From NCBI GenBank assembly GCA_964643545.1, contig CAZXTE010000001.1, positions 19,101 through 83,100 on the forward strand: 64,000 nucleotides of DNA, given 5' to 3'. Positions 26,876 through 52,140 of the stretch are shown one piece after another. How positions within the stretch are numbered: the first letter of the stretch is position 1; every line of letters starts with the position of its first letter. This DNA is from an uncultured Candidatus Saccharibacteria bacterium (lineage in GTDB: Bacteria; Patescibacteriota; Saccharimonadia; Saccharimonadales; AWTP1-31). The notes beneath the pieces are model-generated. The model saw only the letters and a list, made by a program, of their open reading frames with translations. It did no database searches and had not been told where the DNA came from. The position numbers were made by a program, and so were the translations under genes.

Positions 26876-28363
26876 TTGAAAAGTTCTTTTTTGAAGGTGC
26901 GCGTATCGAAAAGTCTGTTCATTGTTATTTCTAGCTCAATTATTTTATCAATCCTGGTTCAACCGCTTATAGCTCTAAAAACCTCTGCGCTGGGCACCTA
27001 CCCTAACGCTTCTATTGCAAACCGAGCCCTCGGCTATACGGGCCAATGGGGCGGTAACGCCTGCAAAGATGTTGGTAGGAGTGGATATACTGGTGGTTAC
27101 CCTGGCGGTCAAACCTACGATGGTCAGTGCCGGGCGTTTGTTAACTGTGTGGTTTGGTCCGTTAGTAATCGTACGCAGTGGTTGGGTGGCGGAGACTACT
27201 TTAGCCCACTCGCAGCCAATGGTCATGAAATCAAAGATATTAATGGTTTAGTAAAAGGTGATGTCATCCAGGTCGGGCAAGGCACGCACACATTCATAAT
27301 TGTTGGTCGTACGGGCGGCAATATATTCAGAGTAGTGGACTCGAACAGCAGGCTAGATGAGGTGGTCCGAACATATGACCGTAAAGTCACCCTCGACAAT
27401 ACAAATCGTGCGTTTCGATTAGGTCTGGCTGATGGGCCTCAACCAACTGTGAACGGAGGGGTCGGGACAAGATTGCTCGGTGATGTAAATGGAGATGGGC
27501 TAGACGATGCGATCGTTATGTTTAAAGACACAGGGACAGCAATGGTCGCTCTTTCGCAAGGCAGCAGCTTCTCTAACCCTTCCGCCTGGAGTTATGGCCA
27601 TTCCATGAACGCAAGTAATTACTTTTTGGCCGATGTAAATGGCGATAAAAAGAAGGACTTGGTCGGATTCTTCGCCCAGGACGGGCGCTGGAAAGTTAGC
27701 CTATCTTCTGGGACCGGGTTTTGGTCACCCGTAGAGTGGGCGTATGGGCAGGGTGTTGGTACGAGTAATCAATGGTTAATGGATGCAAATGGTGACGCGA
27801 AGGCCGACATCATAACTCTAGATAAACAAAACGGCGACTGGTATGTAAGCAGCTCATCCGGGAGTGGGTTCTGGCCACCAAAGCGCTGGATTAGTGGCCA
27901 TGGAGTCGGAAGTGACGATCAAGCAGCAGGAGATTTTAACGGGGACGGCAGAGCTGATGTTGCCATTTGGCTTCGGGATGGCTCGTGGTATGTAGCCCTA
28001 TCTACGGGCAGCACGTTCGGCTATCCTGGCCACTGGTCTGCCGGGCAAGGATTAAATAGCAGCCAACGCCTCGTTGGGGATGCAAACGGCGATGGCAGAG
28101 CTGACACAGCATACTTCTACGCCGATACGGGCAGGTGGTACGTATCTACCTCTTCTGGTTCAGGGTTCTGGACACCAACGGAGTGGGCGTATGGGCAGGG
28201 CGTAGGGACCACGGAGCGTTTCTTGGGCACGACCACAAAAGATTCGCTAGCTGACATGGTTACATTTGACAGAAACACGGGAGATTGGTGGGTTAGTGTA
28301 TCGTCTGGATCAGGCTTTTGGCCACCTTCTCGTTGGATCAGTGGTCACGGTAAGGCTTCTTAG
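26876..28363 (+). CDS. secreted CHAP-like amidase/peptidase fused to an FG-GAP (integrin-alpha-like) beta-propeller
   Basis: It has a signal peptide. The N-terminal Cys...His pair (GQCRAFVNCVVW ... GTHTFIIVG) is CHAP-like. Six or more repeats follow with DVNGDG.DD/DANGDGRAD Ca-binding-like FG-GAP motifs. Confidence 0.65.
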   Translation: MKSSFLKVRVSKSLFIVISSSIILSILVQPLIALKTSALGTYPNASIANRALGYTGQWGGNACKDVGRSGYTGGYPGGQTYDGQCRAFVNCVVWSVSNRTQWLGGGDYFSPLAANGHEIKDINGLVKGDVIQVGQGTHTFIIVGRTGGNIFRVVDSNSRLDEVVRTYDRKVTLDNTNRAFRLGLADGPQPTVNGGVGTRLLGDVNGDGLDDAIVMFKDTGTAMVALSQGSSFSNPSAWSYGHSMNASNYFLADVNGDKKKDLVGFFAQDGRWKVSLSSGTGFWSPVEWAYGQGVGTSNQWLMDANGDAKADIITLDKQNGDWYVSSSSGSGFWPPKRWISGHGVGSDDQAAGDFNGDGRADVAIWLRDGSWYVALSTGSTFGYPGHWSAGQGLNSSQRLVGDANGDGRADTAYFYADTGRWYVSTSSGSGFWTPTEWAYGQGVGTTERFLGTTTKDSLADMVTFDRNTGDWWVSVSSGSGFWPPSRWISGHGKAS

Positions 28364-33281: not shown

Positions 33282-34355
33282 GTGATGGCAATCGTTAGTC
33301 TGCAACTAGAAAACTTTCGTACATACTACCGGGATAGTTTCGAATTCTCGGAAGGGGTTAGTATTATTGTTGGTCCAAATGCCAGCGGTAAAACCAATCT
33401 TCTGGAAGCTATACTACTGCTCTGTGAAGGCCAATCGTTTCGCGCCAAAGATCACGAACTTATTAGCCACGAAAAAGACTATGCCCGAATTGAAGGTTTG
33501 GTGGGTATAGATAAGCGCATTGTTTTGATAGAGCACGATGGGATAGAGCGAAGCACAAAAACACACCAGATAAACACCCAAAACCTAAAACGTTTACCAC
33601 CAGCAAAACGAGTGCCGGTGGTGCTGTTCGAGCCGGAAATTTTACAGCTTTTCCAGGGTGGACCCGAAAAACGAAGAGAGTATATAGATAGTCTGATTAG
33701 CCGGACTACCCCAGGATTCAACACAATACTGCGTCAGTACAGGCGGGTCTTAAGCCAACGAAACGCGTTGCTAAAAAGGCAGCAAGCACCAAAGCAGGAA
33801 GAGTTCTTTGCCTGGGATGTCCGACTAAGTGAATTGGGTGGTCAGATTGCCACTGCGCGCAATCAGCTCATCGACAATCTCAACAGCTCAATAAATGAGG
33901 AGTATCAGAAGATAGCTAGCAAGAACAATAATGTGAGCCTTGAGTATCTCTCTAAAATATCGTCATTGTCGTATAACACCAAAATGCTCCACATGCTCGA
34001 GCAGGTATTCCAAACCGATCGGGAACGGGGGTATACAAGTGTCGGGCCTCACAGAGACGACTTGCAAGTGCTTTTTGATGGTAAAGATGCGAAACAGGTA
34101 GCCTCCCGCGGCGAGATGAGATCATTGGTGTTAACACTAAAGATACTTGAGCTAAAGATCGTAGAAGAGGCAGCCCAAAAGCAACCAATACTACTACTCG
34201 ACGATGTGTTTAGCGAACTTGATGGTGCTCGCCGCAAGGCCCTGACAGAATCAATACAACAATACCAAACCTTTATTACGACCACAGACGCAGACCTAAT
34301 CGTGAAGTATTTTATTGGAGCCTGCGAAATAATCCCCACTAACAGAGCAGTCTAA
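33282..34355 (+). CDS. recF: DNA replication and repair protein RecF
   Basis: Walker A GPNASGKTN and the SMC-like signature LSGGE-equivalent region are present, with a Walker B LLLDDV. It sits in the dnaA-dnaN-recF synteny. Confidence 0.85.
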   Translation: MMAIVSLQLENFRTYYRDSFEFSEGVSIIVGPNASGKTNLLEAILLLCEGQSFRAKDHELISHEKDYARIEGLVGIDKRIVLIEHDGIERSTKTHQINTQNLKRLPPAKRVPVVLFEPEILQLFQGGPEKRREYIDSLISRTTPGFNTILRQYRRVLSQRNALLKRQQAPKQEEFFAWDVRLSELGGQIATARNQLIDNLNSSINEEYQKIASKNNNVSLEYLSKISSLSYNTKMLHMLEQVFQTDRERGYTSVGPHRDDLQVLFDGKDAKQVASRGEMRSLVLTLKILELKIVEEAAQKQPILLLDDVFSELDGARRKALTESIQQYQTFITTTDADLIVKYFIGACEIIPTNRAV

Positions 34356-34987
34356 CGGTTGTTTATATTCCGTATGACTGACTCGGGAACTTTTGGAAAC
34401 TCTTTGATGTACAGAATGATCGTTGGACCTGCGGCAATTGACCAGGTGTTACCACTCTTCTTTAGAACAACCAACAAGATATCATCTTGTTCTGGGTCTA
34501 GCGGGAGGAGCTTCCCGGCATACCAGTCACCTCGCAGATAAAGCTTCCCATCGGAAATAGTGTATTTTGAGATATCATCGAAGTCGCTACGTATAACAGA
34601 CTCCACTGCAGACTTTTGAGGAACGAGCATTTCTTGCAAACGACTGTCGCTATACGAAAGTTCGGGGGTTTGAACGGTAGTTTTAGAGCTAATATTCAGT
34701 TGCTTGGATTCTGTTTTATACACACCACCACTAAAGACTGCGTTGTAATATCCTTTGGAGACTCTGACCGTTGTTTTCTCCTGAGTACGTACGATCTCTT
34801 TGGTGCTGGCTGGGTAGTTGGTGCCAGACTGGGTTAGTGTAATGGTTGTCCCTTGCTCTGGGATCAGAGTGACGCGCTTAAGGCCAAAGAAATATCGAAA
34901 ACCAAACCAGGCAACAAGCCCAAAAACCAACACAATAGCACCGAACGTTACCAGGCGCTTAATTTGAATTCGGGGTGGCTCTTCCAT
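34352..34987 (-). CDS. bitopic membrane protein (N-terminal TM, ~180-aa external domain), candidate VirB8-like T4SS subunit
   Basis: A single N-terminal TM (LVTFGAIVLVFGLVAWFGF) is followed by a soluble domain. It is the last gene of the long minus-strand T4SS-like operon. The VirB8 assignment rests on topology only. Confidence 0.4.
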   Translation of the reverse strand: MEEPPRIQIKRLVTFGAIVLVFGLVAWFGFRYFFGLKRVTLIPEQGTTITLTQSGTNYPASTKEIVRTQEKTTVRVSKGYYNAVFSGGVYKTESKQLNISSKTTVQTPELSYSDSRLQEMLVPQKSAVESVIRSDFDDISKYTISDGKLYLRGDWYAGKLLPLDPEQDDILLVVLKKSGNTWSIAAGPTIILYIKEFPKVPESVIRNINNR

Positions 34988-34988
34988 G

Positions 34989-35387
34989 TTAGTCTCCTGA
35001 CTGAAGGTCTCTAAATATTATTTCCAAATCACTAGGGTCATAACCTTGGGAGCGTATCCAGGTTAGTGCTTCTTGCCTGGCCTGTGGATCGGGGGCTTTA
35101 ATGAGAAGCGCTACCGAATCGTTACTGTCGGGTGAGACCAATGACTTCCCGTAATCTATACGGAAGTAGAGGCCGAGTGCAGGGAGTTTATCTACGATGC
35201 TGCTTTTTGCACGGACTGCCGCATCTTTTTCTTGGTAAGACGTACCACCTGCTCTTTCTTTTTCTTGGGTGCTTTTTGTATTGTTTGTTTGGGTCCTTGT
35301 CGTCACCCCAAGAATAAGTAGCCCGAACATGACGATGCCAATAAGTACGGCTATGACAATGATTTTGCTGCGTGGGTTTTCCTGCAT
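34989..35387 (-). CDS. small bitopic membrane protein
   Basis: 132 aa with an N-terminal TM (IIVIAVLIGIVMFGLLILGV). It sits in the operon 1 nt from its neighbour. Confidence 0.45.
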   Translation of the reverse strand: MQENPRSKIIVIAVLIGIVMFGLLILGVTTRTQTNNTKSTQEKERAGGTSYQEKDAAVRAKSSIVDKLPALGLYFRIDYGKSLVSPDSNDSVALLIKAPDPQARQEALTWIRSQGYDPSDLEIIFRDLQSGD

Positions 35388-35400
35388 TACTTCGTCTCCC

Positions 35401-37863
35401 TTATTTAATTCTCGCTACCGAGAAGTGATGGCCACGATCTTCCAGGTAGGCGTTACCAGCTTGTGGCGCCTGGGAGCCGAGTGAAGCCTGGCGCATGTTA
35501 TACGTGCCTCCCTGTGTCCCGACGTAGATGAATGTGTGTCCCTGGTCACCCGCTGCATAGATCAGTATGTCACCCGGCAACAGCTTGCTTGTGTCGTTTA
35601 TATCGTCAAAAACGGTGTACTTTTCGGGATGACTTCGGAGATACTCAAGTTGTGTTCCGGTGTCGACTTTCGGGTAACTCGTGTCCACCCCGCTACTGAG
35701 CATAACCGTAGCCACAAACCCACCACAGTCAGTTACGTCGGGTGTCGGATTGAATTGTTTCTTGGTATCGAGGAATTTTTGTGTTGCCGTTGCCCCATGG
35801 CCTTTGTCCGGCCACGCGAGGCTTATTGCGGTAGCCACAACATCACCCGCAACAGCAGCATTCCCCCCGGCATCAGGAGACCCTGTGCAGGTACCTGCAC
35901 TAGACCCACCACCACCCCCAACATAGTCTGCACCAATTGCAACCTTGTCGTAGTCACCCTCAGTGTCGCCAGGCCAAGCGATTTGTGGGGCGCCCGGTTT
36001 CTCATCGAGGCCGCCTAAATAGGCAAAGATAGCTCCCGCCCCCATGCGTCCGCTGTTGTCCAAGCCGTAATTACCGTATCCATAGGCGGCAGAGCCCAGA
36101 TATGCACTCCAGGTATTGAGCCATTCGTTGGCCCCAAAAGTTCCATCCTGAATGGCTGCAATAACCTCGGCACCAGTCTTCTGTGGGTTTCTTCTTGTTG
36201 CATGAAGGATAAGAACCCAGGTCGAGTAGTCGATATCTTGCACATTAGACCCATAACCACGTCTAGCTGGGGCACGTCCAGGGACTTGCTCGGGAGTATC
36301 AAAGAATCCGGGCACGCCCACATCGGCGGAATGCCACTTGTACTGCTTGCCGCCCAACTCAGCAGCAGTCGGAAGCTTCCGGCCATTAATCATAGATTGT
36401 TCTGGGTTCGAACTGCCTTCACGCCAGTGCGTTGCTGCTAGTGCCTGCCACGGCACGCCCCAACGCGCCCCAATAGACTTGTAGACAGGGATCTCCCTCA
36501 CGATATCACTTTTTATAAGTGCATCGAGTTTTGACTCTAACCCCTTGCCTTTAATCATTACATTATCGGGGTAGGTCTTGTAGCTGGCGTCAGCGGGTGT
36601 CCCTGGGTTACCGCCACCCCCGCCAGGAGCTGGCGCCCCGGGTTGGCGGATTGCATTAATACGATCCAAAGACTGCTGGATGCGCTGATTCGTTATTTTT
36701 CCTGCCTTATAGTCGGATTCAAGCCGGTCAAGCACCTTCCCAACCGATGATTCATTCACAAAAACAGCCATGTCTGCGCCTGCCGCGATCGCCATAGACG
36801 TTGCCTCCTCTACGCCGTATTTAGACTTAATGGCTTCCATGGTGCCTATGTCGTCTGTCATTGCGACACCGTTAAAGCCGTATTTATCGCGCAATAGTTT
36901 ATAGGTCTCGGGGCTCAAACTCGTTGGTATGCCACCAGTTGTTAGTCCGGGCACATTAAGGTGGCCCAGCATAACAGCAGACCTCGGGTTCTTTAGTAGT
37001 TTTTCGTAAGGCTTTAAATCCCTACCCTCCAGAGTTGCTAAGTCACTGGTTGTCACAACCTGTTTGTGCGAATCGCCATTGGCATAACCATGACCTGGGA
37101 AGTGCTTAAACACGGGCGTAAGGTTGCCTTGGCGGAGTCCTTCGGCAAACGCGCCAGACTTTTTTTCTACAACCGCAGGATCTTTCGAGAATGCCCTGTC
37201 CAAGGGGCTAATAACGGCAGAGCCACCATCGAGGTCTGCCACAGGCGCAAAATCCATGGTTAGTCCAACGGCTGCAAGCTTGTCCGCTTGGCCCTTCGCA
37301 ATGCTCTGAACTTCTGTGTCTGTTTTCGTACCCATTTCCCGAGCACTGGGCACAACGCCGAGCGGACGAAAGCGCTGTACTTTACCGCCTTCTTCGTCGG
37401 CAGCCACCAACATGGGTACAGGACCGGCTTTGAACTTATCGATCCACGTTTTATCTTTCTGCTCAAATTGTCGTCCCATCAAGAAGACTCCCCCCACATG
37501 GCTATCAATCAAGGCTTGAGCTTCTGACTCATTTGTCACAGAGACCATCAACAGTTGGGCGAGCTTCCCGCGGATGCCCCACTCAGCTGGAATTTCATAG
37601 CTGGCGCCAGTTGTTGGGCCTGTTGTTTCGCACTTCTCTTTGGCGTAGTTTGTCTTGTGGTGTTCCGTGTTTAGGAGGATGTGGTACAGATCGTCCTCGG
37701 GTATTTTTGCAGCCATTCCAAGTGGGATGATTGCTTGGAAATACAGCATGGTGAGAATGAACGACGCGCAAAAGAGGCGGAACAGGTGCTTTTTCTTCAC
37801 TATAGACATAGACATAGGCATGGTGTTATTAGCTCCCAGTATGAGACCAATGCCATGGCTCAT
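35401..37863 (-). CDS. secreted multi-domain peptidoglycan hydrolase: GH3 beta-N-acetylhexosaminidase (NagZ-like) plus C-terminal CHAP/NlpC-P60-like domain
   Basis: The KHFPGHGYANGDSH motif is a GH3 hallmark. A Gly/Pro linker (PGGGGGNPGTP) follows, then a middle domain, then C-terminal Cys (DCGGFVATVM) and His (GHTFIYVG) papain-like motifs. It has an N-terminal signal anchor. The real start may be an internal Met at 37821, 37815 or 37809, which would remove the 35-nt overlap. Confidence 0.7.
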   Translation of the reverse strand: MSHGIGLILGANNTMPMSMSIVKKKHLFRLFCASFILTMLYFQAIIPLGMAAKIPEDDLYHILLNTEHHKTNYAKEKCETTGPTTGASYEIPAEWGIRGKLAQLLMVSVTNESEAQALIDSHVGGVFLMGRQFEQKDKTWIDKFKAGPVPMLVAADEEGGKVQRFRPLGVVPSAREMGTKTDTEVQSIAKGQADKLAAVGLTMDFAPVADLDGGSAVISPLDRAFSKDPAVVEKKSGAFAEGLRQGNLTPVFKHFPGHGYANGDSHKQVVTTSDLATLEGRDLKPYEKLLKNPRSAVMLGHLNVPGLTTGGIPTSLSPETYKLLRDKYGFNGVAMTDDIGTMEAIKSKYGVEEATSMAIAAGADMAVFVNESSVGKVLDRLESDYKAGKITNQRIQQSLDRINAIRQPGAPAPGGGGGNPGTPADASYKTYPDNVMIKGKGLESKLDALIKSDIVREIPVYKSIGARWGVPWQALAATHWREGSSNPEQSMINGRKLPTAAELGGKQYKWHSADVGVPGFFDTPEQVPGRAPARRGYGSNVQDIDYSTWVLILHATRRNPQKTGAEVIAAIQDGTFGANEWLNTWSAYLGSAAYGYGNYGLDNSGRMGAGAIFAYLGGLDEKPGAPQIAWPGDTEGDYDKVAIGADYVGGGGGSSAGTCTGSPDAGGNAAVAGDVVATAISLAWPDKGHGATATQKFLDTKKQFNPTPDVTDCGGFVATVMLSSGVDTSYPKVDTGTQLEYLRSHPEKYTVFDDINDTSKLLPGDILIYAAGDQGHTFIYVGTQGGTYNMRQASLGSQAPQAGNAYLEDRGHHFSVARIK

Positions 37864-40800
37864 TCCAGTACTGCTTTAGATTATACTTTCCGGCGTTATC
37901 TATGAGCCAGTCCCACATCGGCATGCCGGGGGCAACACGAGGGTTGCTGGGGCTAGCTTTCCCACCATTTTTTGTGCCAAACTCCTCAGGGTGACCAACT
38001 CGAGTAAGCGCAAAATCTACGGCATCACCAGACTGATGTCTAGATGTTCCAGGCTTTGCGACATCGGAGTAGACGCCGTTAGGGCACTTATCATCTTTTG
38101 CGCACAGCTCTTGTTGGTGCTTCATGGTGCGAAAACTACTGGAGGCTTTGGGTGAGACGCCATCGCTCTTCATGGCGTTAAACATGTTCACCCAATCATT
38201 TGATTTGTCTGCTGCCACGAGTACGTTACCATCTGCCCCATTTACGTAATATTGACTACGCGGATTACTCTCCTCGCTTGAACTTGGGAAGCCAAGGATC
38301 GCACACAGGGTTATCTTCTTTAGAACGCCACCTTCATACCCATCGGCAAGCCCCACGTTCTTGGTGCCACTTGCACAGGTTCCGTCGCCCGTACCTCCCG
38401 TAGAGGCGGGGGGTGGTCCAAGACTCGCCACAAGAAAGTCGCTCTTTGCCAGGTATCCTGCAGCAGTATGGTGAATTTTATCTGGCGCAAACGGATACTT
38501 AGCTGGATTTTTAGCCACCTCGGCACGCCAGTCAATGGGTGTATATTTCAGGGCAGCCGCCTGGCTCGAAACTGCCGCCGCGACAGCATCGTAATTGGAA
38601 ATTTGGGTTTTTGCATTCATCCAGAATATCTTCGCCGAGGGGTTGTATTCGTGGATTTTGTCGACCATGAGTTTTATTTTGCTCGCGAACTGGGGGCTGT
38701 CTGGTCCTGGGTTTGTGCCCAGCATGACCGCTATTGTCCCGGCACGGCTAACTTCGTTTCTATCGAGGTCGATCTTTTCTAGAGATCGGTCAACGTCTAT
38801 ACCGTCGGTTGCCTGGACCTTGGTAACTTCCCACCCAGCAGTTTGCAGCTTGTTCGTTAATGAGCCTAAGTCTTTCATGCCGTTTGTCAACGAGTCGCCA
38901 ACGACGTAGACTGCATTATTGCCACCCCCACTATTTGAACCTCCGCCCCCGCTGGTGGTTTCAGATTCATAATCTTCCGGGTCGAGCACATCAGTTGTAT
39001 ATCGGCCACCAGCTGCCGCCACAGCCTTCTTATTTAGCAAGCAAGGGTTTTCCTTGGTGTGCACGTCGGTGCCCGTCTCCTTGTCCTCTATAAGCGTACC
39101 TGCAAATTCACCGCGCCCATTCGCCCAGTCTTTATCCATCTTTTCACAGACGGCGTCGGTAAGCGTGTCTGGGTCAACATCAAGTGCTGACGAATTCTTT
39201 GGAAAGCCATATTGGACGACACCAAATGGGTCAGGCTTTGCATCTGCTGCAAAGGTCTTTTTGGTGGCAAGTAAACTGCCAAAACTTTTTGACAGGCTTG
39301 TGAATGGATTTGCGAGAAGACCGGTGACGCCTGTATTGGCGGTTCTAGTCACACTGCTGGGTGTAGCCATCGCCATTTGGCTGACAAGTGATTTTGGACT
39401 CTCTGTGCTGAACATACGAGCAAAGAATGGTTGACGTTGGAATTCCTCGTTGCGCTGATTCTCTTGGTCGGCGCGAATCTCGGCTACCTGGGCGTCGGTG
39501 AGGCGTATGCCCCCCAGGCCATAGTGTGCATCATTATTCCCTGCTACATCGGCACCGCCTGCGAGCATATCGAATGTGCGGGCCCCGCTCATGTCTGCAG
39601 ACACTGGTGACGGGATTAGCCACTTCGCAATTGTTTCGAATATCTTGCCGATTTGTTCCTCAATCATCTTCTTTAGGTCAGCGTATTGAGGAAAGATCTT
39701 GCTAATTGCTGCCTCGACAGCACCTACGCCCAGATCAATGAGCTTATTGATCAAGTTAAGGATTTGTCCGATTGTGGCGTTCCATGCATCTGCCGTCTGC
39801 CCGAGCAGACTAAGTGGGGGTTGATTAAAGATGTCAGATATTTTCTGGATGACCCCATTGGTAAGCAGACTTTCCTCTGGGCAAATAAGCTTACCGGTGT
39901 CTGGCTTATTCTTATCGTCACATGTGTATTTTGGCTCTGACGCAGTGCTGCCCGTTTCTGCTGCGTATGCTTTTTGCGGCGACAGGACATCCAAAAAGGA
40001 GCTTTTTTGTATTGGTTCGCCTAGGATGTCCCCGTAGAGTGGTGCTAATTCAGCGGGTTGATTTTTGTGGTCTTTATCACCGGCGCTGTCACCCACACCA
40101 TTCGTCATGCTACCGAGCAACTCGACGTTACAATGCATGCCTTTGCACTCGTCTGCAGTTGTTCTATACAGCATGTAGGTTGCCACCATTTGCGTGCCAA
40201 TAATTTCGTATTTCCAGCGTTTCAATGCCGGCCCAGCTGACTTAGCTTTCGCGGTAATTCTGGCTGCTAGGTCAATCCAGCCAATAACAGGCAAGCCTTT
40301 CGAGGCGGCTGACCCTGCAGCCTCTCCGGCAATCTTCGCAACAACCTCTTCAACAATAAAAGCAGTTAAGCTCTTGTCTGCGAGTTTAATTGTCTTCTCA
40401 ACAATTTTTTCTACGGTCTCCTCGGTGAATTCTTTGCCAGACTTCTCAAGTGCCTCACGAATTTGTTTCTCTATTTTGTCTCTCCTCACTCCGTCATTGT
40501 CAGCTTCACCCTTCGATGCTTTGTCCGAATCACAGGCAGGATCGATGATACACTCTAATACAAAACCCAGATGTTGAGTGTAGGGTATGATGACCCGGCG
40601 ATTAATGACGAGCCTGAAGGCTCCCTTCTTTTTGTCTTTCCAGTCGTCTATGCGATCTTTTGATTTGCACGCAAAAACACACCTCCGGATGCCGTATTTT
40701 TCTTCCAGAAGTCGCCCCACCTTGAATCGGTACATAACACGCTTCCACAATGTCTCTTCTTTGAAAGACTCACGTACTTTTATGCGAACATCATTTCTGC

Positions 40801-41575
40801 CACCTGCTGCCTTCCACATACCCTGGTTTGGGTCTTTTCGCCAGCCTTCTACGTCAAGGTTACTCACTTTGTCATTGACCTTAATCTTGTAGTCGCTTGC
40901 CCCGCCACTAAAACCATCCCGGGTTATTTCTATGCCGTATTTCTCGGATAGTTTATTCTCGAGGCGTGCATCGCGCCAACCCCTAAACAAGCGGGCAGCC
41001 GGCGAATCGCCTTCTAGATTGGCAATACAATTTTTGTCTATTGTCCCAGACGAACGACTACAGGTTCCCTTGCCTAGGTTTGGGATCACCTTATCTCGGA
41101 GGTACTTGTCTAGTAGCCTTTCTGCTCTCGTTTGCACAGCACTCTCCGAGCTGGCAAAAAAGCGACTCTGCAAATTTTCCATGATGTGGTTAATCTTCAA
41201 GGGCAAAAACGCCATGAATGCGGCCAGAATCAAACCGCCAATGCCACCCCCAATAAGCCCAGCACCAATCAATTTCTTTTTTTTGCCGCCCGTGGCACCT
41301 GCTAAAAATTTCTTAAGGCTTTGAAGGTCTTTTACATCCTCAGTATTGTAGCCGCTCCCAACCCTATCGCCGAGCGCATCTGCTTCTCTTGATGCGGCTC
41401 CGCCAACACCATCCGCTGCCTCTCCCTGAGCCTCTTGCTCTGAGATATTTGGTGTTTCTGTCGAAGCGTCACCACTGGCCTCGTTTGTTAGTTTGGGGTC
41501 CTCATCTCCGCCCCCCACACTTCCTGATGCTCTTCGAGGCGAGTCATCGTCATATATTTTTGATGGTTCACCCAT
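37829..41575 (-). CDS. giant membrane-anchored multi-domain protein: SGNH/GDSL hydrolase plus C-terminal M15 (VanY/LAS-type) peptidase domain
   Basis: 1248 aa with an N-terminal TM (GAGLIGGGIGGLILAAFMAFL). There are a GDSL block VYVVGDSLTNG and a downstream SGNH-like block. The C-terminal SRHQSGDAVD ... EPWHW motifs match Zn D-Ala-D-Ala carboxypeptidase-like (VanY / peptidase M15) signatures. Confidence 0.65.
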   Translation of the reverse strand: MGEPSKIYDDDSPRRASGSVGGGDEDPKLTNEASGDASTETPNISEQEAQGEAADGVGGAASREADALGDRVGSGYNTEDVKDLQSLKKFLAGATGGKKKKLIGAGLIGGGIGGLILAAFMAFLPLKINHIMENLQSRFFASSESAVQTRAERLLDKYLRDKVIPNLGKGTCSRSSGTIDKNCIANLEGDSPAARLFRGWRDARLENKLSEKYGIEITRDGFSGGASDYKIKVNDKVSNLDVEGWRKDPNQGMWKAAGGRNDVRIKVRESFKEETLWKRVMYRFKVGRLLEEKYGIRRCVFACKSKDRIDDWKDKKKGAFRLVINRRVIIPYTQHLGFVLECIIDPACDSDKASKGEADNDGVRRDKIEKQIREALEKSGKEFTEETVEKIVEKTIKLADKSLTAFIVEEVVAKIAGEAAGSAASKGLPVIGWIDLAARITAKAKSAGPALKRWKYEIIGTQMVATYMLYRTTADECKGMHCNVELLGSMTNGVGDSAGDKDHKNQPAELAPLYGDILGEPIQKSSFLDVLSPQKAYAAETGSTASEPKYTCDDKNKPDTGKLICPEESLLTNGVIQKISDIFNQPPLSLLGQTADAWNATIGQILNLINKLIDLGVGAVEAAISKIFPQYADLKKMIEEQIGKIFETIAKWLIPSPVSADMSGARTFDMLAGGADVAGNNDAHYGLGGIRLTDAQVAEIRADQENQRNEEFQRQPFFARMFSTESPKSLVSQMAMATPSSVTRTANTGVTGLLANPFTSLSKSFGSLLATKKTFAADAKPDPFGVVQYGFPKNSSALDVDPDTLTDAVCEKMDKDWANGRGEFAGTLIEDKETGTDVHTKENPCLLNKKAVAAAGGRYTTDVLDPEDYESETTSGGGGSNSGGGNNAVYVVGDSLTNGMKDLGSLTNKLQTAGWEVTKVQATDGIDVDRSLEKIDLDRNEVSRAGTIAVMLGTNPGPDSPQFASKIKLMVDKIHEYNPSAKIFWMNAKTQISNYDAVAAAVSSQAAALKYTPIDWRAEVAKNPAKYPFAPDKIHHTAAGYLAKSDFLVASLGPPPASTGGTGDGTCASGTKNVGLADGYEGGVLKKITLCAILGFPSSSEESNPRSQYYVNGADGNVLVAADKSNDWVNMFNAMKSDGVSPKASSSFRTMKHQQELCAKDDKCPNGVYSDVAKPGTSRHQSGDAVDFALTRVGHPEEFGTKNGGKASPSNPRVAPGMPMWDWLIDNAGKYNLKQYWNEPWHWSHTGS

Positions 41576-41601
41576 GGTTGTTTATACGGCTCCGACCATA
41601 G

Positions 41602-43515
41602 TTAAACTCCAGGCGTCAATCTATTGTTAAGGTCAATGGTGCCTTGTGGCTGATTGATTTCGCCCTGTCTCATTTGTTGAACCTGCTGCGGATTCGTTGT
41701 GATAAGCCCGGTTTCTGTAGGGCTGGCTGTAATCTGGATATGAACGTGGCTTTGCCCAGCGAAGAACAGGCCCTGGCCAACAGGAAATTGACTGAGGCGC
41801 TTCTTCTCCTCGCTGGTAAGCTTGAATATATCAGCCAATACATCAACGGCAGACGTCGACTGCTTCAGCAGTATCTGCATGCTTGCGTTGGCAACGATCG
41901 CGCGACCCATGCGTGATCCCATAAAGTCCTCCACATCCTGGCTAATGGTGGTAATGCCGAGGTTGTACTTTCGAGCACGTTTTGCAAGCGAAAACAAGAA
42001 GTTAGCAGAGTCTTCGTACTTCATAAGCTGCCAAGCTTCATCGACAATCAGAATGCGACGTTTTACGTCACTCTTCGTTTTGTTCCAGATGTAGTTCAGT
42101 ACAATGTACATAGCAACGGGGCGTAATTCGTCCTCGAGGTCACGTATGTTAAACACAACCAGGGGATTATTGACGTTAGTATTCGATTGCTGACTAAAAA
42201 TGCCCGCAAATGTACCGGTGGTATATTTTCTTAGACGCTGTGCGAGCTGTGGTCCTGTGCCGCCCATATGTAGCAGCGTGTCGTACAGATCGGCAATTGT
42301 TGGCGGAACCCCATTGTGCGTGAGTGGATCGTTGGTTATGCCGGCCTTGGCATATGTTTCGATGAGTGCTGCGTCGAGGTCGGATTCTTCTACGGGGGAT
42401 AAAGCAGGAACAGCGGCTACACCGCCACTTGCTGCCATTTGTGCTTGTGCGCCACCCATCATCAGTCGGAAGAGCCCGTGCAAAGTAATAATATTACTAC
42501 GCAAGGCGTTGTCGGCTTCTTCGGCATCTACAACCTTCGGAAGGTCAAAGGGGTTAATGCGTGTTGCTGAGCTCAAACTTAGTCGTACATATGCACCACC
42601 GACTGCATCACACATTCGCTGGTATTCGTTTTCTGGGTCAATAATAAAGATTTCGGTGCCGAACATAAGACTACGCAACGCTTCTAGCTTAACGGTAAAC
42701 GACTTACCAGCACCCGACTTGGCAAAGACAACTGAGTTGCCATTTTCTAGGCTAAACCGATCAAATATAACAAGACCAGAGTTGTGCATGTTGATGCCGT
42801 ACAATATGCCATTCTCTTGGCTCAGGTCGGCCGAAGTAAACGGGAAGCTCGTGCTAATCGCGCCCGTGTTCATATTGCGACGAATCTGAAGCTGGTCCAT
42901 AAATTGCGGTATGCAACTATTAAAGCCCTGCTCTTGCTGTGAGGTAGCTGCTTTGGAGTAGGTTAGCTGTTGGCCCAGCATAGACTCGATCTTGTGGGTT
43001 ACAAACTCCAGTTCGTCCATGTCGCCTGCGTAGACAGTAAAATATAATCCAAAACGGAAGAAACGTTCCTCGCCAACCTGTAACTTATCGCGCATTTCCT
43101 CAGCATCTGTAATGGCGGCCTGCTTGCCTGGGTCTCGCACGCGTCCCTTCTCTGCGTCAATCTGTAGACCGGCCTCTAACTGCGTTACTTTTTTGCGCAA
43201 GTTCTCCAAAACCACTTGGCTTTCCACGGGGTATATATACATAGAAAGATCCATAACCTCGTCGATGTTTACCAGGCTACTTGCCCAGCCTGTAAAAACC
43301 TGGCGGGGGTATCCGTAGACATAAAATGTTCTGGCTATCCTGGTCCCAATATGGAACAGACTATTCTCGAACACAAGTGAACTGGGGGCGATAAAGTCAC
43401 GAAGTGCAGTGATGCCCTTTTGGAACGCTGCGCTTACCTCTTGCTCTTCTCGTGCTCGTTGCGCTTGTGCGATTGCAACCGGGTCAACGGGTTGGTTCTT
43501 TCTGCCAAAAGCCAT
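41602..43515 (-). CDS. virB4: type IV secretion system ATPase, VirB4/TraC/CagE family (C-terminal ATPase module)
   Basis: Walker A FAKSGAGKSF and Walker B ILIVDEAWQL (DEAW is characteristic of VirB4) are present, with an ISQDVEDF motif C region. 637 aa is short for VirB4, which suggests the N-terminal domain is encoded separately. Confidence 0.75.
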   Translation of the reverse strand: MAFGRKNQPVDPVAIAQAQRAREEQEVSAAFQKGITALRDFIAPSSLVFENSLFHIGTRIARTFYVYGYPRQVFTGWASSLVNIDEVMDLSMYIYPVESQVVLENLRKKVTQLEAGLQIDAEKGRVRDPGKQAAITDAEEMRDKLQVGEERFFRFGLYFTVYAGDMDELEFVTHKIESMLGQQLTYSKAATSQQEQGFNSCIPQFMDQLQIRRNMNTGAISTSFPFTSADLSQENGILYGINMHNSGLVIFDRFSLENGNSVVFAKSGAGKSFTVKLEALRSLMFGTEIFIIDPENEYQRMCDAVGGAYVRLSLSSATRINPFDLPKVVDAEEADNALRSNIITLHGLFRLMMGGAQAQMAASGGVAAVPALSPVEESDLDAALIETYAKAGITNDPLTHNGVPPTIADLYDTLLHMGGTGPQLAQRLRKYTTGTFAGIFSQQSNTNVNNPLVVFNIRDLEDELRPVAMYIVLNYIWNKTKSDVKRRILIVDEAWQLMKYEDSANFLFSLAKRARKYNLGITTISQDVEDFMGSRMGRAIVANASMQILLKQSTSAVDVLADIFKLTSEEKKRLSQFPVGQGLFFAGQSHVHIQITASPTETGLITTNPQQVQQMRQGEINQPQGTIDLNNRLTPGV

Positions 43516-44387
43516 TACAGTAGCTCCCTGTCTAAGTTTGGTTGTGGAGCCTGTCCTTGCCCTCTTGTGACAACAGGTGTTGAAAGATCACCGAAGTTAC
43601 GAAGTTGCTGCCTTGTTGCAGTATCTGGGTTGTAGGCATCGTAGTAGAGCTCGATAAGTTCCTGGGTATCGAGTGGTAACCCTTGGATGCCGCACTGCAT
43701 CAATCCAGAGAGTACAGCTTGTACGCGGTTTCTCAGCTCGTCTTTTGCCTTGGCGAGATCAGTCTCATTGATAACCACTTGCTTCTCAGGCTTCTTGCTG
43801 AACAGTGCCCCAATGCCACCAACAAGTTTCTTGCTTTCATCCAGTGTTTTCTGCAGGTCTGCTACGGGGAAATAGGGTATGACCACGTAAAAACGTTTAT
43901 CCATAATGTTGGTTTGTTGGCTCAACTGATCCATGAAATTTATGTAATCGTCCATGAGTAGCGCCAACAGCATGTTGTCGTGCTCGCTACGAATTTTGAC
44001 AAGCTTATCCAAGTAAGGTCCAAGGTCTACCTTCTCGGAACGGATCATAATTTGTATAGGGAAATAGAGAGAATTTAGAAAACCCTGGTAGCTAAACTCA
44101 ACAGCCTCTCGTTCTTGCGGGCTCATTAGGTCAAAGTTAATAGATTTTGTCATGATGACGGAACGGAAAGAGCCATCGTTCATGATCACAATACCATCTC
44201 GGATTTCCGCTATTTGCAGGGCATTTTGTGTGCTGTTTGGGTTTGATGGTGGTGCAAGAGGTTGTGGTTTGGCCCCAGCGGTACGAGGTGCATTAAAGCT
44301 AGCAGGTGGCGGTCCAGCGGGGGTTGGGTATGCCATCCCGGGCTGGTTTTGTACGGGGTTCATCTGAGGATTTGATGCCGGATTCAT
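43515..44387 (-). CDS. protein translationally coupled to virB4, possible detached VirB4 N-terminal domain
   Basis: 290 aa. Its stop TAA overlaps the virB4 ATG by 1 nt. The N-terminus is Pro/Asn-rich and low-complexity. The rest (IAEIRDGIVIMNDGSFRSVIMTK...) is a folded domain reminiscent of the VirB4/TraC N-terminal region. Confidence 0.5.
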   Translation of the reverse strand: MNPASNPQMNPVQNQPGMAYPTPAGPPPASFNAPRTAGAKPQPLAPPSNPNSTQNALQIAEIRDGIVIMNDGSFRSVIMTKSINFDLMSPQEREAVEFSYQGFLNSLYFPIQIMIRSEKVDLGPYLDKLVKIRSEHDNMLLALLMDDYINFMDQLSQQTNIMDKRFYVVIPYFPVADLQKTLDESKKLVGGIGALFSKKPEKQVVINETDLAKAKDELRNRVQAVLSGLMQCGIQGLPLDTQELIELYYDAYNPDTATRQQLRNFGDLSTPVVTRGQGQAPQPNLDRELL

Positions 44388-44427
44388 GCTACCTGTCTAC
44401 CCACTCCCTTGGTGCTCAATTGATAAT

Positions 44428-45471
44428 TTAACGCAGCGATATTATTACTTCACCATCGTCAGTCTTTGATTGACTGGGGTGGTTCTTCTCTGCCTCTCGT
44501 GCCAAACTATCAATCGGGCGATTATTCTCGATTGCTAGGTTCAGTATATCAGGCGCAGGTGCTGCTGTCACCCCTGGTGATTTTGGTTGTGCTTGCGGGG
44601 GCTGACTCGAAAGCGGCTGGAGCTTTCTGTGGTTACGAAACGACTCATCTGGGTGGCTTTTTTGCTCGTGTATCTTGTTTAGTAGCGCCTGCTCATTTGC
44701 GTCTGGTATTGCTGGCTTGGCAAAAGTCGGAGCAGGTGTTGACCCTCCCTGTGATTGCACGAACCAGCCTCCTGGGGGTGCGATATTGGTGCTCGGTGCT
44801 TGTTGCTCCCGAGCAACTTCACGCATGTGAGAGACTGCCTCTTGTTGGTGCACTTCCTTCGACTGGGCAATTTGGGCATCGAGCCGAGCGGCCGTTTGAT
44901 TATCAAAAATATCATCCTCTGCTCGAACATCTATGGTCGAGACCTGCTTTGGCAATTCCTCGACCGCTACAAGCCTGTCCGAGCTTGGCGCCATAGCTAA
45001 CGAACCGTAAGAGGGCTGTGCAAATAAGTTCACGTCCACGTTCTTAATAACCCAACCACGGCTGTCTATGGTTGTTGCCAGCGCCTTAAGGCGGCTTTTG
45101 ACTTCGTTCTGGCTAAGGTTATCAGAGAAGTTCTGTTCAATATGTTTTGGAACAGTTATCTTGACCAGTTCCTTCATGCCCGACTGGTCCCAAATGCGTT
45201 TACGTGGCTTAAAGTAAAAACGGAGCTTAGCGAGGAGCCATACCTCAGTGGGCTGATCTCGACCCCACGGGAACGCCAAAAACCCAAAGACAATCTCTAT
45301 AGGCAACAAAATAACCGCCACAAACCATACATTGTGTGTAAGGCCCAAGAAACTTATGTAAAGACTGGTTACAACAATCGCCCCAAAGATAAATTGTTTC
45401 AGCGTTAAGGGGCCAAGGAACTTATCCTCTGCCTCAATATCCTGGAGAACTTTATACGTAGCCACTAGCAT
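44428..45471 (-). CDS. membrane protein with N-terminal TM hairpin, candidate VirB3-like T4SS subunit with extended Pro/Gln-rich tail
   Basis: Two adjacent N-terminal TM helices (FIFGAIVVTSLYISFLGL / VWFVAVILLPIEIVFGFLAF) sit immediately upstream of virB4. This position and topology are typical of VirB3/PrgI/TcpE. Confidence 0.45.
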   Translation of the reverse strand: MLVATYKVLQDIEAEDKFLGPLTLKQFIFGAIVVTSLYISFLGLTHNVWFVAVILLPIEIVFGFLAFPWGRDQPTEVWLLAKLRFYFKPRKRIWDQSGMKELVKITVPKHIEQNFSDNLSQNEVKSRLKALATTIDSRGWVIKNVDVNLFAQPSYGSLAMAPSSDRLVAVEELPKQVSTIDVRAEDDIFDNQTAARLDAQIAQSKEVHQQEAVSHMREVAREQQAPSTNIAPPGGWFVQSQGGSTPAPTFAKPAIPDANEQALLNKIHEQKSHPDESFRNHRKLQPLSSQPPQAQPKSPGVTAAPAPDILNLAIENNRPIDSLAREAEKNHPSQSKTDDGEVIISLR

Positions 45472-45523
45472 TTAGTATCTGATATTCATCAGAAGCATGC
45501 AAGTTTTATAGAGGAAACTTGTA

Positions 45524-46495
45524 CTAAAGAGCTGGAGGTCCGGCAGGTGGTGCTGGAGGTGCAGCGGGCGGAGGCGGCAGTGCAGCTATGCGGGCAGCCT
45601 CTGCCGTAGCAGCTGCCTGGGCATCCAGATTGGCAGTTGCAAGTGCGGCAGTAGTTTGTATCTCGTTTAAGACCGCCCGCTCTGCATCGTATCTACCGAC
45701 GGCTGCATCAAGCAGGTTCACTCTCGTTTCTTTGGGGGTAGAAGCGCGTTTGTATTGAGGGCTAAATTCACCCAGAATTTTAAAAGCATCAAATCCACCA
45801 CCCTCCTTGTCGGGTCGCCTAGGGCGTTCCCGGGCAATGGGCATGTTGCTCTCGAATGGACCAAGGTCAGGCGTTGGGGAATAGGAGGTATCCTCTCCTA
45901 GGAGTGCTGGCCCCCGTGATGGAACGTGGCCTTCAAAGAATTCAAGCCCTGTCCCCACAATCCTACCAAGCGCTCCTGGATCGTCAGAGACGTGTTTTCT
46001 GCGACCCGTTGGGATGACTTCACGCCTAATGCTAAACACGGCAAATATTGGAGAGCCGCCGTCTCGGGCAACTTCCACCGGTGTGCTATAGGTTGTTTCA
46101 ACGCGTCCTATCGGCTGCTCTTCTCGCGAAATTCTGCCAGGTATGCGACTTCGCCGGTCTATACCAGGCCCTCTTGTTCGCAGGGCGTTTTGTCGCATGC
46201 GATCGGGCTCGCTTCTTTGGGTACGCTCTGCATCAACACCAATTCGCTGGATTAAGTCATCAACGTCTGCGGCTACTCGCTCTTGTTCTCCGTAGAATTC
46301 AAGCACAGCTTCCGCACCCCTGTGAATGTCCTGTGTTGCCTCAACGTGCGCTTCCCTTGTAGCCTCTTCATCATCACGTCGATCGTGTCTGGCCGTCTGT
46401 AATCTACGACGGAGGTCTTCTTGGTAGGCTGCTTGTTCTGGGCTAGGGATATCGCTCATAGTGTATTTTTGTTTTAATAGTGAGTAACAAATCAA
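45524..46495 (-). CDS. hypothetical protein with Pro/Ala-rich N-terminus, T4SS-operon member
   Basis: 323 aa. The N-terminus is low-complexity (PPPPAAPPAPPAGPPAL). It lies between the virB6-like gene and the virB3-like gene in the same operon. Confidence 0.45.
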   Translation of the reverse strand: MICYSLLKQKYTMSDIPSPEQAAYQEDLRRRLQTARHDRRDDEEATREAHVEATQDIHRGAEAVLEFYGEQERVAADVDDLIQRIGVDAERTQRSEPDRMRQNALRTRGPGIDRRSRIPGRISREEQPIGRVETTYSTPVEVARDGGSPIFAVFSIRREVIPTGRRKHVSDDPGALGRIVGTGLEFFEGHVPSRGPALLGEDTSYSPTPDLGPFESNMPIARERPRRPDKEGGGFDAFKILGEFSPQYKRASTPKETRVNLLDAAVGRYDAERAVLNEIQTTAALATANLDAQAAATAEAARIAALPPPPAAPPAPPAGPPAL

Positions 46496-46547
46496 CAGTA
46501 CACTATTTTGGTTAATAAGTCAACAAGGTTGTGTAAAGTCATCTATA

Positions 46548-49931: not shown

Positions 49932-50450
49932 ATGAACGAAAACAATAATCAAACACCAGCAGAAACCGTAGACTACAGTTTCATAACGGATCAACCCACG
50001 GCATCTCCAAAAAAGAAACCTAATAAAATGATCGCCATATTTCTCGGGTTGACGTTGCTCGTTATTTTGGCGGCGGGCTTACTGTTGTTAGTACAGTCCA
50101 AAAAAAGCACAACCAAAAGTAACATCGACGCAGAACAGGTCGTCCGACAACTTTTTGTAGATATGGGGAACGGGGATAATATCGCCGCCCTAAACGCATT
50201 TACGGGGCCAAATAAGCCGGATGCTGCGTACCTTGAGGGCTACTTAATAGCTCCGCTGAAGAATGATTACTTGGTAGATTCATGCACATTTACCTCTTCA
50301 GAAACAAAAGTAGCTAGCTATTACCAGGTCAAGGCATCTTGCCCACAAAAGCAAGCAAGTAACATCAGAATTCGTGTAGACTTTACAGTTATGAGACAAG
50401 AGCTATCATCGAAAATTGTTGCATACTCTCTTGGCGGGGTAGATACGTGA
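49932..50450 (+). CDS. bitopic membrane protein, divergent from the T4SS operon
   Basis: 172 aa with a TM at residues ~33-54. It overlaps the next gene by 4 nt. Confidence 0.5.
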   Translation: MNENNNQTPAETVDYSFITDQPTASPKKKPNKMIAIFLGLTLLVILAAGLLLLVQSKKSTTKSNIDAEQVVRQLFVDMGNGDNIAALNAFTGPNKPDAAYLEGYLIAPLKNDYLVDSCTFTSSETKVASYYQVKASCPQKQASNIRIRVDFTVMRQELSSKIVAYSLGGVDT

Positions 50451-51819: not shown

Positions 51820-52140
51820 GTGACATTCAACGTATTTGCACAAACACAGCCCCCACCTACTTCACAGGTTGGTGTTTGTACTACAGATTTGTGCAACACA
51901 AATCTGCCCGCAGTGAGTGCAGGAAGCACGCAAGTGACTACGGTTTTGCAGATCTTGTTTGGAGTGGTAGCAGTGCTGGCGCTTATTTATGTCATTTTGG
52001 CAGGTTTGAAGCTCATCACTTCCAGCGGTGATCCTCAGTCAGTAGCAAAAGGACGACAACAGATACTCTTTGCAGTTATTGGCCTGACAGTTGCACTCAG
52101 CGCCGAACTAATCATTTCATTTGTAATCAACAGGCTATAA
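51820..52140 (+). CDS. VirB2/TrbC-pilin-like small membrane protein (paralog 3 of 6)
   Basis: 106 aa with a CTTDLC Cys pair and the loop ITSSGDPQSVAKGRQQ between two hydrophobic helices. Confidence 0.55.
   Translation: MTFNVFAQTQPPPTSQVGVCTTDLCNTNLPAVSAGSTQVTTVLQILFGVVAVLALIYVILAGLKLITSSGDPQSVAKGRQQILFAVIGLTVALSAELIISFVINRL

Follow-up and report, generated by a model that had tools for sequence, protein, structure and literature searches.

A rare GH3-bearing variant of the VirB1-like hydrolase in the type IV secretion cluster of Candidatus Saccharibacteria

The gene and its predicted modules

We analysed a window of 64,000 nucleotides from an uncultured Candidatus Saccharibacteria bacterium (GenBank assembly GCA_964643545.1, contig CAZXTE010000001.1, positions 19,101 to 83,100, renumbered here from 1), in which a type IV secretion system (T4SS) cluster lies close to the replication origin genes. 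The second gene downstream of virB4 in this cluster encodes a predicted exported peptidoglycan hydrolase of three modules, an open reading frame (ORF) of 820 codons whose coordinates and strand agree exactly with those in a preliminary description of this DNA. The gene is a rare variant, bearing a glycoside hydrolase family 3 (GH3) module, of the known and essential VirB1-like multi-module hydrolase of Saccharibacteria T4SS, and we put at roughly 0.7 the probability that it encodes the three-module, VirB1-equivalent wall-breaching enzyme of that system. The features of the gene are as follows.

35401-37863, minus strand: whole gene, listed as an ORF of 820 aa and predicted to encode an exported peptidoglycan hydrolase of three modules
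37708-37800, minus strand: putative N-terminal export segment (aa 22-52), a KKK n-region and ~23 hydrophobic residues, then GMA/AK
36655-37575, minus strand: GH3 catalytic domain (aa 97-403) of the N-terminal type and NagZ/LpqI kind, a predicted exo-beta-N-acetylglucosaminidase
37066-37107, minus strand: NagZ signature KHFPGHG-YANG-DSH (KHFPGHGYANGDSH, aa 253-266) with the Asp-His dyad inside it
36850-36858, minus strand: TDD motif (aa 336-338)
36580-36642, minus strand: Gly/Pro-rich linker 1 (aa 408-428)
35929-36576, minus strand: middle domain (aa ~430-645) with a lysozyme-like/GH23-like fold, of a rare family without a Pfam model
36418-36420, minus strand: Glu482 (motif PWQALAATHWRE-GSSNP), proposed to be the catalytic acid of the lysozyme-like domain
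35848-35928, minus strand: Gly/Ser-rich linker 2 (aa 646-672)
35404-35847, minus strand: C-terminal cysteine peptidase of the NlpC/P60 superfamily (aa 673-820), papain-like alpha+beta fold
35725-35727, minus strand: Cys713 (DCGGFV), predicted nucleophile
35536-35538, minus strand: His776 (GHTFIYVG), predicted general base

The listed start codon, an ATG at 37863, lies 35 nt inside the upstream gene, whose stop is at 37829, and an alternative ATG at 37821 (Met15) has GGGAG 11 nt 5' of it. Because of this GGGAG and because the same 90%-identity cluster contains one member of 806 aa, the true start is probably the ATG at 37821 with a product of 806 aa. The gene shares the strand of its upstream neighbour and, depending on the start, overlaps it by 35 nt or follows it after a gap of 8 nt. 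Either start codon retains the export segment. A Kyte-Doolittle scan of the whole protein found a single strongly hydrophobic stretch (aa 27-54), which follows KKK, and on this heuristic the N-terminal segment would either serve as a Sec signal peptide or stay uncleaved as a signal anchor; together with the positive-inside rule, hydrophobicity predicts an N-terminal transmembrane segment with the modules outside. The secretion signal claimed in the preliminary description is thus found from both starts, as judged from hydrophobicity, and the export call is supported by classical signal peptides in two proteins (P0002 and P0003) that occupy the same position behind virB4 at other loci, the virB4+2 slot. 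A lipoprotein like LpqI or YbbD was considered and rejected, as the sole Cys of the export segment sits in RLFC, which is not a lipobox. The Gly/Pro linkers described earlier are present at both interdomain positions, where they are apparent from their composition and from a predicted local distance difference test score (pLDDT) below 50 at the start of the middle-domain model and low at the start of the C-terminal model.

The GH3 module matches Pfam PF00933 (Glyco_hydro_3) over aa 97-403 with E=1e-63 and 216 bits against a cutoff of 27, covering 313 of the 316 model positions, and with the KHFPGHG-x4-DSH signature this confirms the NagZ-like domain first proposed from its KHFPGHG motif. The pattern KH(F/I)PG(H/L)G-x4-D(S/T)H is specific to NagZ and contains the Asp-His dyad. 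In our alignment the signature falls on the same motif of the solved structure 4yyf, and 'mTDDigtm' falls on 'yTDDlssm' of 4yyf, which we take to be the position of the catalytic nucleophile Asp of GH3 enzymes. There is no GH3 C-terminal domain, which makes this the single-domain NagZ type. The NCBIfam equivalog model for beta-N-acetylhexosaminidase (NF003740) gave 162.4 bits, under its cutoff of 207, and judged by its signature the module is a member of the NagZ/LpqI subfamily and not an equivalog of the Gram-negative NagZ.

The best solved relatives of the module are all actinobacterial, namely 4yyf (1.9e-70), Mycobacterium tuberculosis LpqI 6gfv (1.1e-64) and 5iob (2.5e-57), and the Gram-negative NagZ structures stand more than 20 orders of magnitude behind them at 1e-33 or weaker. 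Bacillus subtilis YbbD, deposited as "lipoprotein ybbD", is also matched. The statement that NagZ enzymes are normally cytoplasmic therefore holds for Gram-negative bacteria but not for the closest relatives of this module, the exported actinobacterial LpqI type (E 1e-57 to 1e-70). LpqI, a lipoprotein, sits on the outer side of the membrane, and the Asp-His dyad has been reported for both NagZ and LpqI (PMC6572805). As the closest relatives are of this kind, with YbbD as a further case, an exported NagZ is not anomalous in itself. LpqI is exo-acting and non-autolytic, and frees N-acetylglucosamine (GlcNAc) from the soluble muropeptides made by a muramidase or a lytic transglycosylase (PMC6572805); by analogy the predicted activity of the GH3 module is the exo-acting removal of beta-linked GlcNAc. 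A literature search on GH3 or NagZ in Saccharibacteria or Patescibacteria found nothing relevant.

The nearest relatives of the module outside the candidate phyla radiation (CPR), among P0012-P0030 and ~40-45% identical, are Ser/Thr protein kinases with a C-terminal GH3 domain, and a kinase that carries an extracellular NagZ-like sensor domain is unusual in itself. The gene of one of them (P0012, Pkinase-GH3; L088 6001-8019) adjoins aftD, which encodes an arabinofuranosyltransferase, together with DUF2613 and DUF222 genes, a context that points to Mycobacteriales. Best hits and this one genomic context, rather than a phylogeny, are thus compatible with the capture of the GH3 module from a Mycobacteriales host lineage.

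The middle domain, left as unknown in the preliminary description, was resolved as a lysozyme/lytic-transglycosylase fold, recognised by fold comparison alone from a confident AlphaFold2 model (pLDDT 87). It matched no Pfam or PHROGs family at E<=10, SLT and SLT_2 included, and its family profile had no match by sequence among solved structures. A HMMER scan of 1.84 billion representatives with this domain returned five proteins at E<1e-10, and ~10 further proteins match it only around (V/I)PWQ(A/V)LAA(I/T)H(W/Y/F)RE(G/A)..NP. The catalytic Glu of GH23 enzymes stands at the C-terminal end of a helix, and Glu482, a candidate for that residue, is placed at the C-terminal end of helix 60-71 in the model; in the alignment Glu482 is invariant across 19 family members. 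The middle domain is thus a predicted third catalytic module, its model placing it in a family of lysozyme fold that is absent from current domain libraries. It may act either as a hydrolase or as an enzyme that forms 1,6-anhydro ends. A diverged Phage_lysozyme2 (PF18013) domain was rejected as an assignment, with no Pfam hit and an hhalign probability of 0.1% against 30-odd PF18013 domains of the slot. Distant relatives of the middle domain are fused to M23, M15_4 and C39_2 domains. One of them (P0172, 359 aa) has an N-terminal T4SS pilin domain (Pfam T4SS_pilin 6e-5), and this fusion is a further physical link of the unannotated lysozyme-like family to T4SS.

The C-terminal domain has a papain-like alpha+beta fold and had been described as CHAP/NlpC-P60-like, a label of which the NlpC/P60 half is the nearer at the sequence level. 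Pfam PF00877 (NlpC_P60) scored 18.3 bits on the whole protein and 22.3 bits on the isolated domain, short of the gathering score of 23, and the family profile matches Spr/MepS and RipA. NlpC/P60 matches at E<=0.01 were found for 15 of the 29 family members and weak CHAP matches for three. CHAP (PF05257) itself had no match to this domain at E<=10, and an assignment of the peptidase to CHAP was rejected for want of sequence-level support; CHAP endolysins, which belong to the same superfamily, are among the top fold matches. Cys713 aligns with the catalytic-Cys motif 'DCSGFV' of Spr/MepS and its column is nearly invariant in the 29-sequence alignment, and His776 aligns with the catalytic His of Spr/MepS and RipA and is invariant (29/29), which bears out the papain-like order of Cys then His noted previously.

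A database search with aa 426-820 gave 48 proteins at E<=0.001. Local mapping by BLAST and phmmer placed the C-terminal family at or near the C-terminus in nearly all of them, fused to PF18013, M23, SLT, Amidase_3, GH73, Rpf-like transglycosylase or beta-lactamase-like domains. Among the matches with organism names the family occurs in Saccharibacteria, Saccharimonadales and the actinobacterium Kribbella. The Kribbella chromosomes encode it fused to PF18013 and M23 (P0132, P0136, P0155, P0156), and Saccharibacteria thus have hydrolase modules in common with members of the host phylum. A phage origin was rejected: PHROGs gave only a weak match of the C-terminal domain to a tail-lysin family (E=7e-4) and none for the middle domain, and the context is chromosomal and dnaA-proximal.

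Selection was assessed from one pair, this gene and its 94%-identical orthologue at locus L001 (Candidatus Saccharibacteria bacterium CTOTU2456). The ratio of nonsynonymous to synonymous divergence (dN/dS) was 0.049 for the whole gene, with 0.035 for GH3, 0.027 for the middle domain, 0.028 for the C-terminal domain, 0.12-0.17 for the linkers (0.17 for linker 1) and 0.25 for the N-terminus, which indicates that all three modules are maintained under purifying selection. In the same pair dS is about twofold higher in the GH3 part (1.04 over 36655-37575) than in the middle (0.41) and C-terminal (0.52) parts, which may reflect recombination or a GH3 module with a history of its own.

The type IV secretion cluster around the gene

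The hydrolase gene lies among the following genes.

41602-43515, minus strand: VirB4-type T4SS ATPase (Pfam P-loop_TraG 1.5e-26, AAA_10, DUF87)
37829-41575, minus strand: upstream partner of 1248 aa with a membrane region at the N-terminus, then a GDSL esterase-like domain, and a C-terminus that resembles VanY/M15 D-Ala-D-Ala carboxypeptidases
44428-45471, minus strand: PrgI (VirB3-like) T4SS component (Pfam PrgI 3.4e-11)
46548-49844, minus strand: large polytopic membrane protein with multiple hydrophobic stretches, in a VirB6/TrbL-like position and assigned by position only
50447-53460, plus strand: six small proteins (328, 129, 106, 135, 136 and 142 aa), VirB2-like pilins, each with a conserved C-terminal hydrophobic hairpin
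34352-35387, minus strand: genes for small exported proteins of 132 and 211 aa, which follow the hydrolase gene in the same direction and have no informative Pfam hit

The T4SS-like operon that had been proposed as the context of the gene is borne out by the VirB4/TraG P-loop ATPase and by PrgI, and this VirB4 is 83-89% identical to the VirB4 proteins of four other loci (L002, L003, L005, L007). The upstream partner matches Pfam VanY (3.9e-15, aa 1122-1247) and Lipase_GDSL_2 (1.6e-7, aa 891-1041), and its first ~880 aa comprise a long low-complexity and membrane region without a recognised domain; the same gene stands between virB4 and the hydrolase in L002-L007. The large membrane protein had no Pfam hit, and the corresponding cluster end in L003 and L005 holds a TrbL_3 gene. 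The pilin-like array is divergent from the T4SS operon, with a weak Pfam T4SS_pilin match for its first protein only (50447-51433). The genes dnaA, dnaN and recF are on the plus strand and the minus-strand T4SS cluster converges on recF. The order virB4, large VanY protein, multi-module hydrolase, small exported protein or proteins and recF-dnaN-dnaA is common to the window and L002-L007. G+C content is 0.48-0.53 across 34000-48000, the T4SS and hydrolase region, and 0.40-0.47 in most of the remaining window.

The layout of the cluster matches SEML1_0006-0019 of Candidatus Southlakia epibionticum, where SEML1_0008 is VirB4 and SEML1_0007 (1113 aa), which has a DD-peptidase fold at its C-terminal end, takes the position of our upstream partner. 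SEML1_0006 (643 aa) combines GH73 and a phage-tail lysozyme with a cysteine-proteinase fold, and SEML1_0005 (636 nt) encodes an exported protein whose function was left unassigned (PMC10633639). The 211-aa protein of the window agrees with SEML1_0005 in both length (636 nt) and position. All four genes from SEML1_0005 to SEML1_0008 scored as essential for epibiotic growth by transposon sequencing (PMC10633639, Table S2), and the six VirB2-like pilins of the S. epibionticum T4SS, to which the six-protein array of the window corresponds, have also been reported essential. A later survey proposes that the role of VirB1 has passed to the homologues of peptidases and lysozymes encoded downstream of virB4 (PMC12102498).

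Other features of the window include a gene for an L,D-transpeptidase, which suggests 3-3 cross-links in the epibiont's own wall that may be relevant to the bonds met by T4SS-linked peptidases, as well as several envelope-related genes and four tRNA genes.

58970-60439, minus strand: 489-aa protein with YkuD L,D-transpeptidase and PG_binding_4 domains
26876-28363, plus strand: FG-GAP repeat protein
17858-19756, minus strand: GT2 glycosyltransferase
24296-25618, minus strand: Wzy_C O-antigen-ligase-like protein
5408-7729, minus strand: YfhO-like membrane protein
54830-55033 (minus strand), 55741-55817 (plus strand) and 62219-62308 (plus strand): tRNA genes Ser-tga, Ser-gct, Arg-gcg and Ser-cga

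The ORF listed at 54779-55087 is an artefact spanning two of the tRNA-Ser genes, and several ORFs of 430-554 aa (12707-14329, 14896-16560, 16561-17853) had no Pfam match.

Module turnover behind virB4 and the proposed function

The genes in the slot of the six loci compared directly with the window encode different sets of modules.

L002: GH3, PF18013 and C39_2
L003: GH3, PF18013 and M23
L004: PF18013, GDSL, GH3, Amidase_3 and the same Cys-peptidase family as here
L005: beta-lactamase-like, GH3, PF18013 and M23
L006: the same lysozyme-like family as the middle domain here, and M23
L007: SLT-like and the same Cys-peptidase family as here

For an unbiased sample metagenome contigs were searched with an alignment of VirB4 (five seed proteins, 83-89% identical), which gave 80 loci (L008-L087) with VirB4 at 73-88% identity. 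The virB4+2 gene was complete in 39 of the 80 and encodes 279-835 aa. Over these 39 genes Pfam recognised PF18013 in 23, M23 in 7, C39_2 in 7, GDSL in 6, CHAP in 5, Amidase_3 in 4, NlpC_P60 in 4, GH73 in 3, C70 in 2, Amidase_2 in 1, SLT_2 in 1 and GH3 in none. Local hidden Markov models run over all ORFs of the sampled loci found GH3 in 1 locus (L022, where the contig end truncates the gene), the middle-domain family in 3, the C-terminal family in 12 and PF18013 in 25. A peptidoglycan hydrolase stood at virB4+2 in every one of the ~46 loci examined. The slot is therefore fixed in position, always filled by a peptidoglycan hydrolase and extremely modular; within it the Cys-peptidase family is common, the lysozyme-like family uncommon and GH3 rare (~2%). 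Over ~85 loci VirB4 is 73-89% identical and the virB4+2 gene varies between 279 and 1200 aa and has its catalytic modules completely exchanged, a striking difference in evolutionary rate between genes of one operon.

The exact set of GH3, lysozyme-like and NlpC/P60-like modules was found among GTDB representative genomes only at the 94%-identical L001, and a full-length search for the same architecture returned the single 90% cluster (P0001). Other GH3-bearing occupants of the slot are P0002-P0011, P0017, P0021 and P0031 (loci L002-L005, L022). They share with our protein the T4SS position and an orthologous GH3 (38-54% identity over GH3), and one of them (P0005) ends in the same C-terminal Cys-peptidase family, but the partners of their GH3 are PF18013 with C39_2, M23, Amidase_2/3, GDSL or beta-lactamase-like domains. 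A NagZ-CHAP fusion in a T4SS operon had been called atypical, which is right in so far as GH3 is rare in the slot; a multi-domain hydrolase at this place is known and essential (PMC10633639, PMC12102498).

These loci also bear on whether the gene has anything to do with the T4SS. It could encode a general autolysin or peptidoglycan recycler that is a neighbour of the cluster merely through genome compactness, given that GH3 NagZ/LpqI and NlpC/P60 enzymes are ordinary in wall turnover and that the cluster lies beside dnaA-dnaN-recF, a conserved housekeeping neighbourhood. We regard this as very improbable, since a hydrolase occupies virB4+2 in all ~46 loci despite the complete turnover of its modules, the gene overlaps or nearly abuts the T4SS-linked gene upstream of it on the same strand, the slot occupant of S. 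epibionticum is essential along with the rest of the cluster, and the distant middle-domain member P0172 is fused to a T4SS pilin domain.

For a VirB1-equivalent enzyme we propose the following mechanism. The protein would be exported by Sec and either tethered through its N-terminal hydrophobic segment or released, with its three peptidoglycan-degrading modules borne on flexible linkers. The middle lysozyme-like domain would cleave the backbone between N-acetylmuramic acid (MurNAc) and GlcNAc with Glu482 as the catalytic acid, and the C-terminal NlpC/P60-type domain would cleave stem peptides or cross-links through Cys713 and His776. The GH3 module, predicted to be exo-acting, would take non-reducing GlcNAc off the strand ends and muropeptides made by the other two modules and so yield free GlcNAc; by analogy with LpqI it could not open the sacculus alone, and the fusion would channel the products of its partners directly to it. 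Together with the adjacent GDSL and VanY protein the enzyme could reduce a patch of wall to small units and clear a path for the T4SS channel and pilus. The GDSL domain of the neighbour is a possible de-O-acetylase, in which case the locus would bring together up to five wall-directed activities. The identities of the domains, their conserved catalytic residues, the purifying selection on the three modules, the fixed place beside virB4 and, from the literature, the essential nature of the slot occupant in S. epibionticum are established; we infer the bond specificities, the cooperation of the modules and the target wall.

Several points weigh against this interpretation. The module activities are predictions from sequence and fold, and export is judged from hydrophobicity only. 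The middle domain has Gly (EG) where family-1 lytic transglycosylases have the Ser of their 'ES' motif, and it is without the SPYVMN..D..H motif that its more distant family members have. In the peptidase the column that aligns with His131 of Spr, the canonical third residue of the triad, varies among family members and holds Met in this protein. The third polar residue of NlpC/P60 enzymes (His/Asn/Gln/Glu) lies ~12 residues past the His, and a nearly invariant Ser794 lies 18 residues past His776; the catalytic apparatus may be a Cys-His dyad or use another residue. Of the three domains of PrgK of pCF10 the muramidase in the middle is the only one important for catalysis, and those on either side of it have a regulatory role, so that conserved catalytic residues are no proof that all three modules work. 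Finally, hardly any other genome has GH3 in the slot, and the module thus cannot be required for core T4SS function.

Which wall a VirB1-equivalent enzyme would open is a further question. It might act on the epibiont's own peptidoglycan only, as a donor-side analogue of VirB1, TraG and PrgK that makes room for assembly of the T4SS and its pilus, with GH3 tidying up or recycling the fragments. TraG and PrgK are known to play this role in Gram-positive conjugation, it fits the membrane-anchored layout of glycosidase and Cys-peptidase that they share with our protein, and the gene is closely packed into the T4SS operon, with an overlap or a very short gap to the gene upstream. However, the chemistry of the own wall should be alike among genomes whose VirB4 is 73-89% identical, yet whole modules swap in the slot (GH73, GH3, PF18013, SLT, M23, C39, CHAP, amidases), and for a housekeeping assembly factor one would expect conservation on a par with VirB4. 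We therefore hold a self-directed role to be a minority possibility. Shuffling of the slot modules against so conserved a VirB4 would fit the diverse wall chemistries of actinobacteria, and on this ground a target in the host wall, alone or in addition to the own wall, is somewhat more likely than the own wall alone, which is an argument and not a demonstration.

A host target also admits a nutritional purpose. Peptidoglycan of the host would be digested at the attachment site and the GlcNAc and peptides imported by an auxotrophic epibiont, with GH3 as the key addition and the link to the T4SS a matter of co-deployment. Characterised GH3 relatives are exo-acting and serve amino-sugar salvage outside the membrane, many biosynthetic pathways are lacking in Saccharibacteria, and module shuffling is consistent with the tracking of host wall types. 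The nearest non-CPR GH3 relatives, moreover, come from Mycobacteriales (the PDB matches, and P0012 next to aftD), an order that includes known Saccharibacteria hosts such as Gordonia (PMC11880426). On the other hand no GlcNAc transporter or catabolic genes were seen near the gene, although no search was aimed at them, ~98% of the sampled loci are without GH3, so that GlcNAc harvesting by this enzyme is no general requirement, LpqI-type enzymes are equally active on a cell's own turnover products, and contact with the host wall is itself a supposition of the proposal. Nutrient harvesting as the purpose of the enzyme is accordingly doubtful, and we would extend it only as speculation to the idea that the virB4+2 slot is a fast-evolving host-directed cassette that sets which actinobacterial walls the epibiont can breach, with GH3 captured from a Mycobacteriales host lineage and the enzyme doubling as a GlcNAc feeding device.

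Saccharibacteria and other CPR bacteria cannot live on their hosts without their T4SS, and as the most variable part of this highly conserved machine the hydrolase slot is a natural candidate determinant of host specificity or exploitation. The window illustrates that the slot can recruit an exo-glycosidase, predicted by analogy to free GlcNAc, and that it uses a lysozyme-fold family that no database model describes. On its own the gene is another member of a recognised enzyme class and introduces no new principle.

Comparison with known systems

One of the closest described counterparts of our VirB1-equivalent candidate is SEML1_0006, which occupies the same slot after the large DD-peptidase protein and before the small exported proteins and recF-dnaN-dnaA, and which likewise comprises three wall-degrading modules with a papain-like cysteine peptidase last. 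Compared by domain description, it differs in having GH73 (PF01832) where this protein has GH3 and PF18013 where this protein has the lysozyme-like family without a Pfam model.

The GH3 module taken by itself resembles LpqI (Rv0237; 6gfv, 4yyf, 5iob) and NagZ/YbbD of B. subtilis, which are also single-domain GH3 enzymes with the Asp-His signature and are extracytoplasmic. LpqI and its relatives are, however, stand-alone lipoproteins of ~340-390 aa that recycle the cell's own wall, whereas the module here lacks a lipobox, forms one protein with two further hydrolases and lies in a T4SS operon. Similarity to the type VI secretion effectors Tse1, an NlpC/P60 amidase, and Tse3, a muramidase, is at the level of fold only; these are separate injected proteins neutralised by immunity proteins, whereas the N-terminus of our protein is of the Sec type, and an immunity gene for it was not identified.

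TraG of pIP501 has two domains, SLT and CHAP, and PrgK of pCF10 combines LytM, a muramidase and CHAP. The analogy to these Gram-positive T4SS hydrolases, drawn in the preliminary description, is sustained by a layout shared with TraG and for the most part with PrgK: all belong to a T4SS operon of the Gram-positive type, in which our gene lies on the same strand as virB4, with an N-terminal membrane segment followed by an extracellular glycan cutter of the lysozyme/SLT fold and then by a C-terminal Cys/His peptidase of the CHAP/NlpC-P60 superfamily. Neither TraG nor PrgK has GH3, PrgK having LytM instead, and the middle domain here is without a Pfam SLT match and the peptidase is nearer to NlpC/P60. 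The systems differ too, in that no relaxase is recognisable in the Saccharibacteria T4SS, which the cells need in order to grow and not to conjugate. It had been suggested that the protein represents a different solution to the problem that TraG and PrgK solve. Given a lysozyme-like middle domain paired with a Cys-peptidase we see instead the same solution, in which the core of glycosidase and Cys-peptidase of the Gram-positive VirB1-like enzymes is kept and GH3 is added to it.

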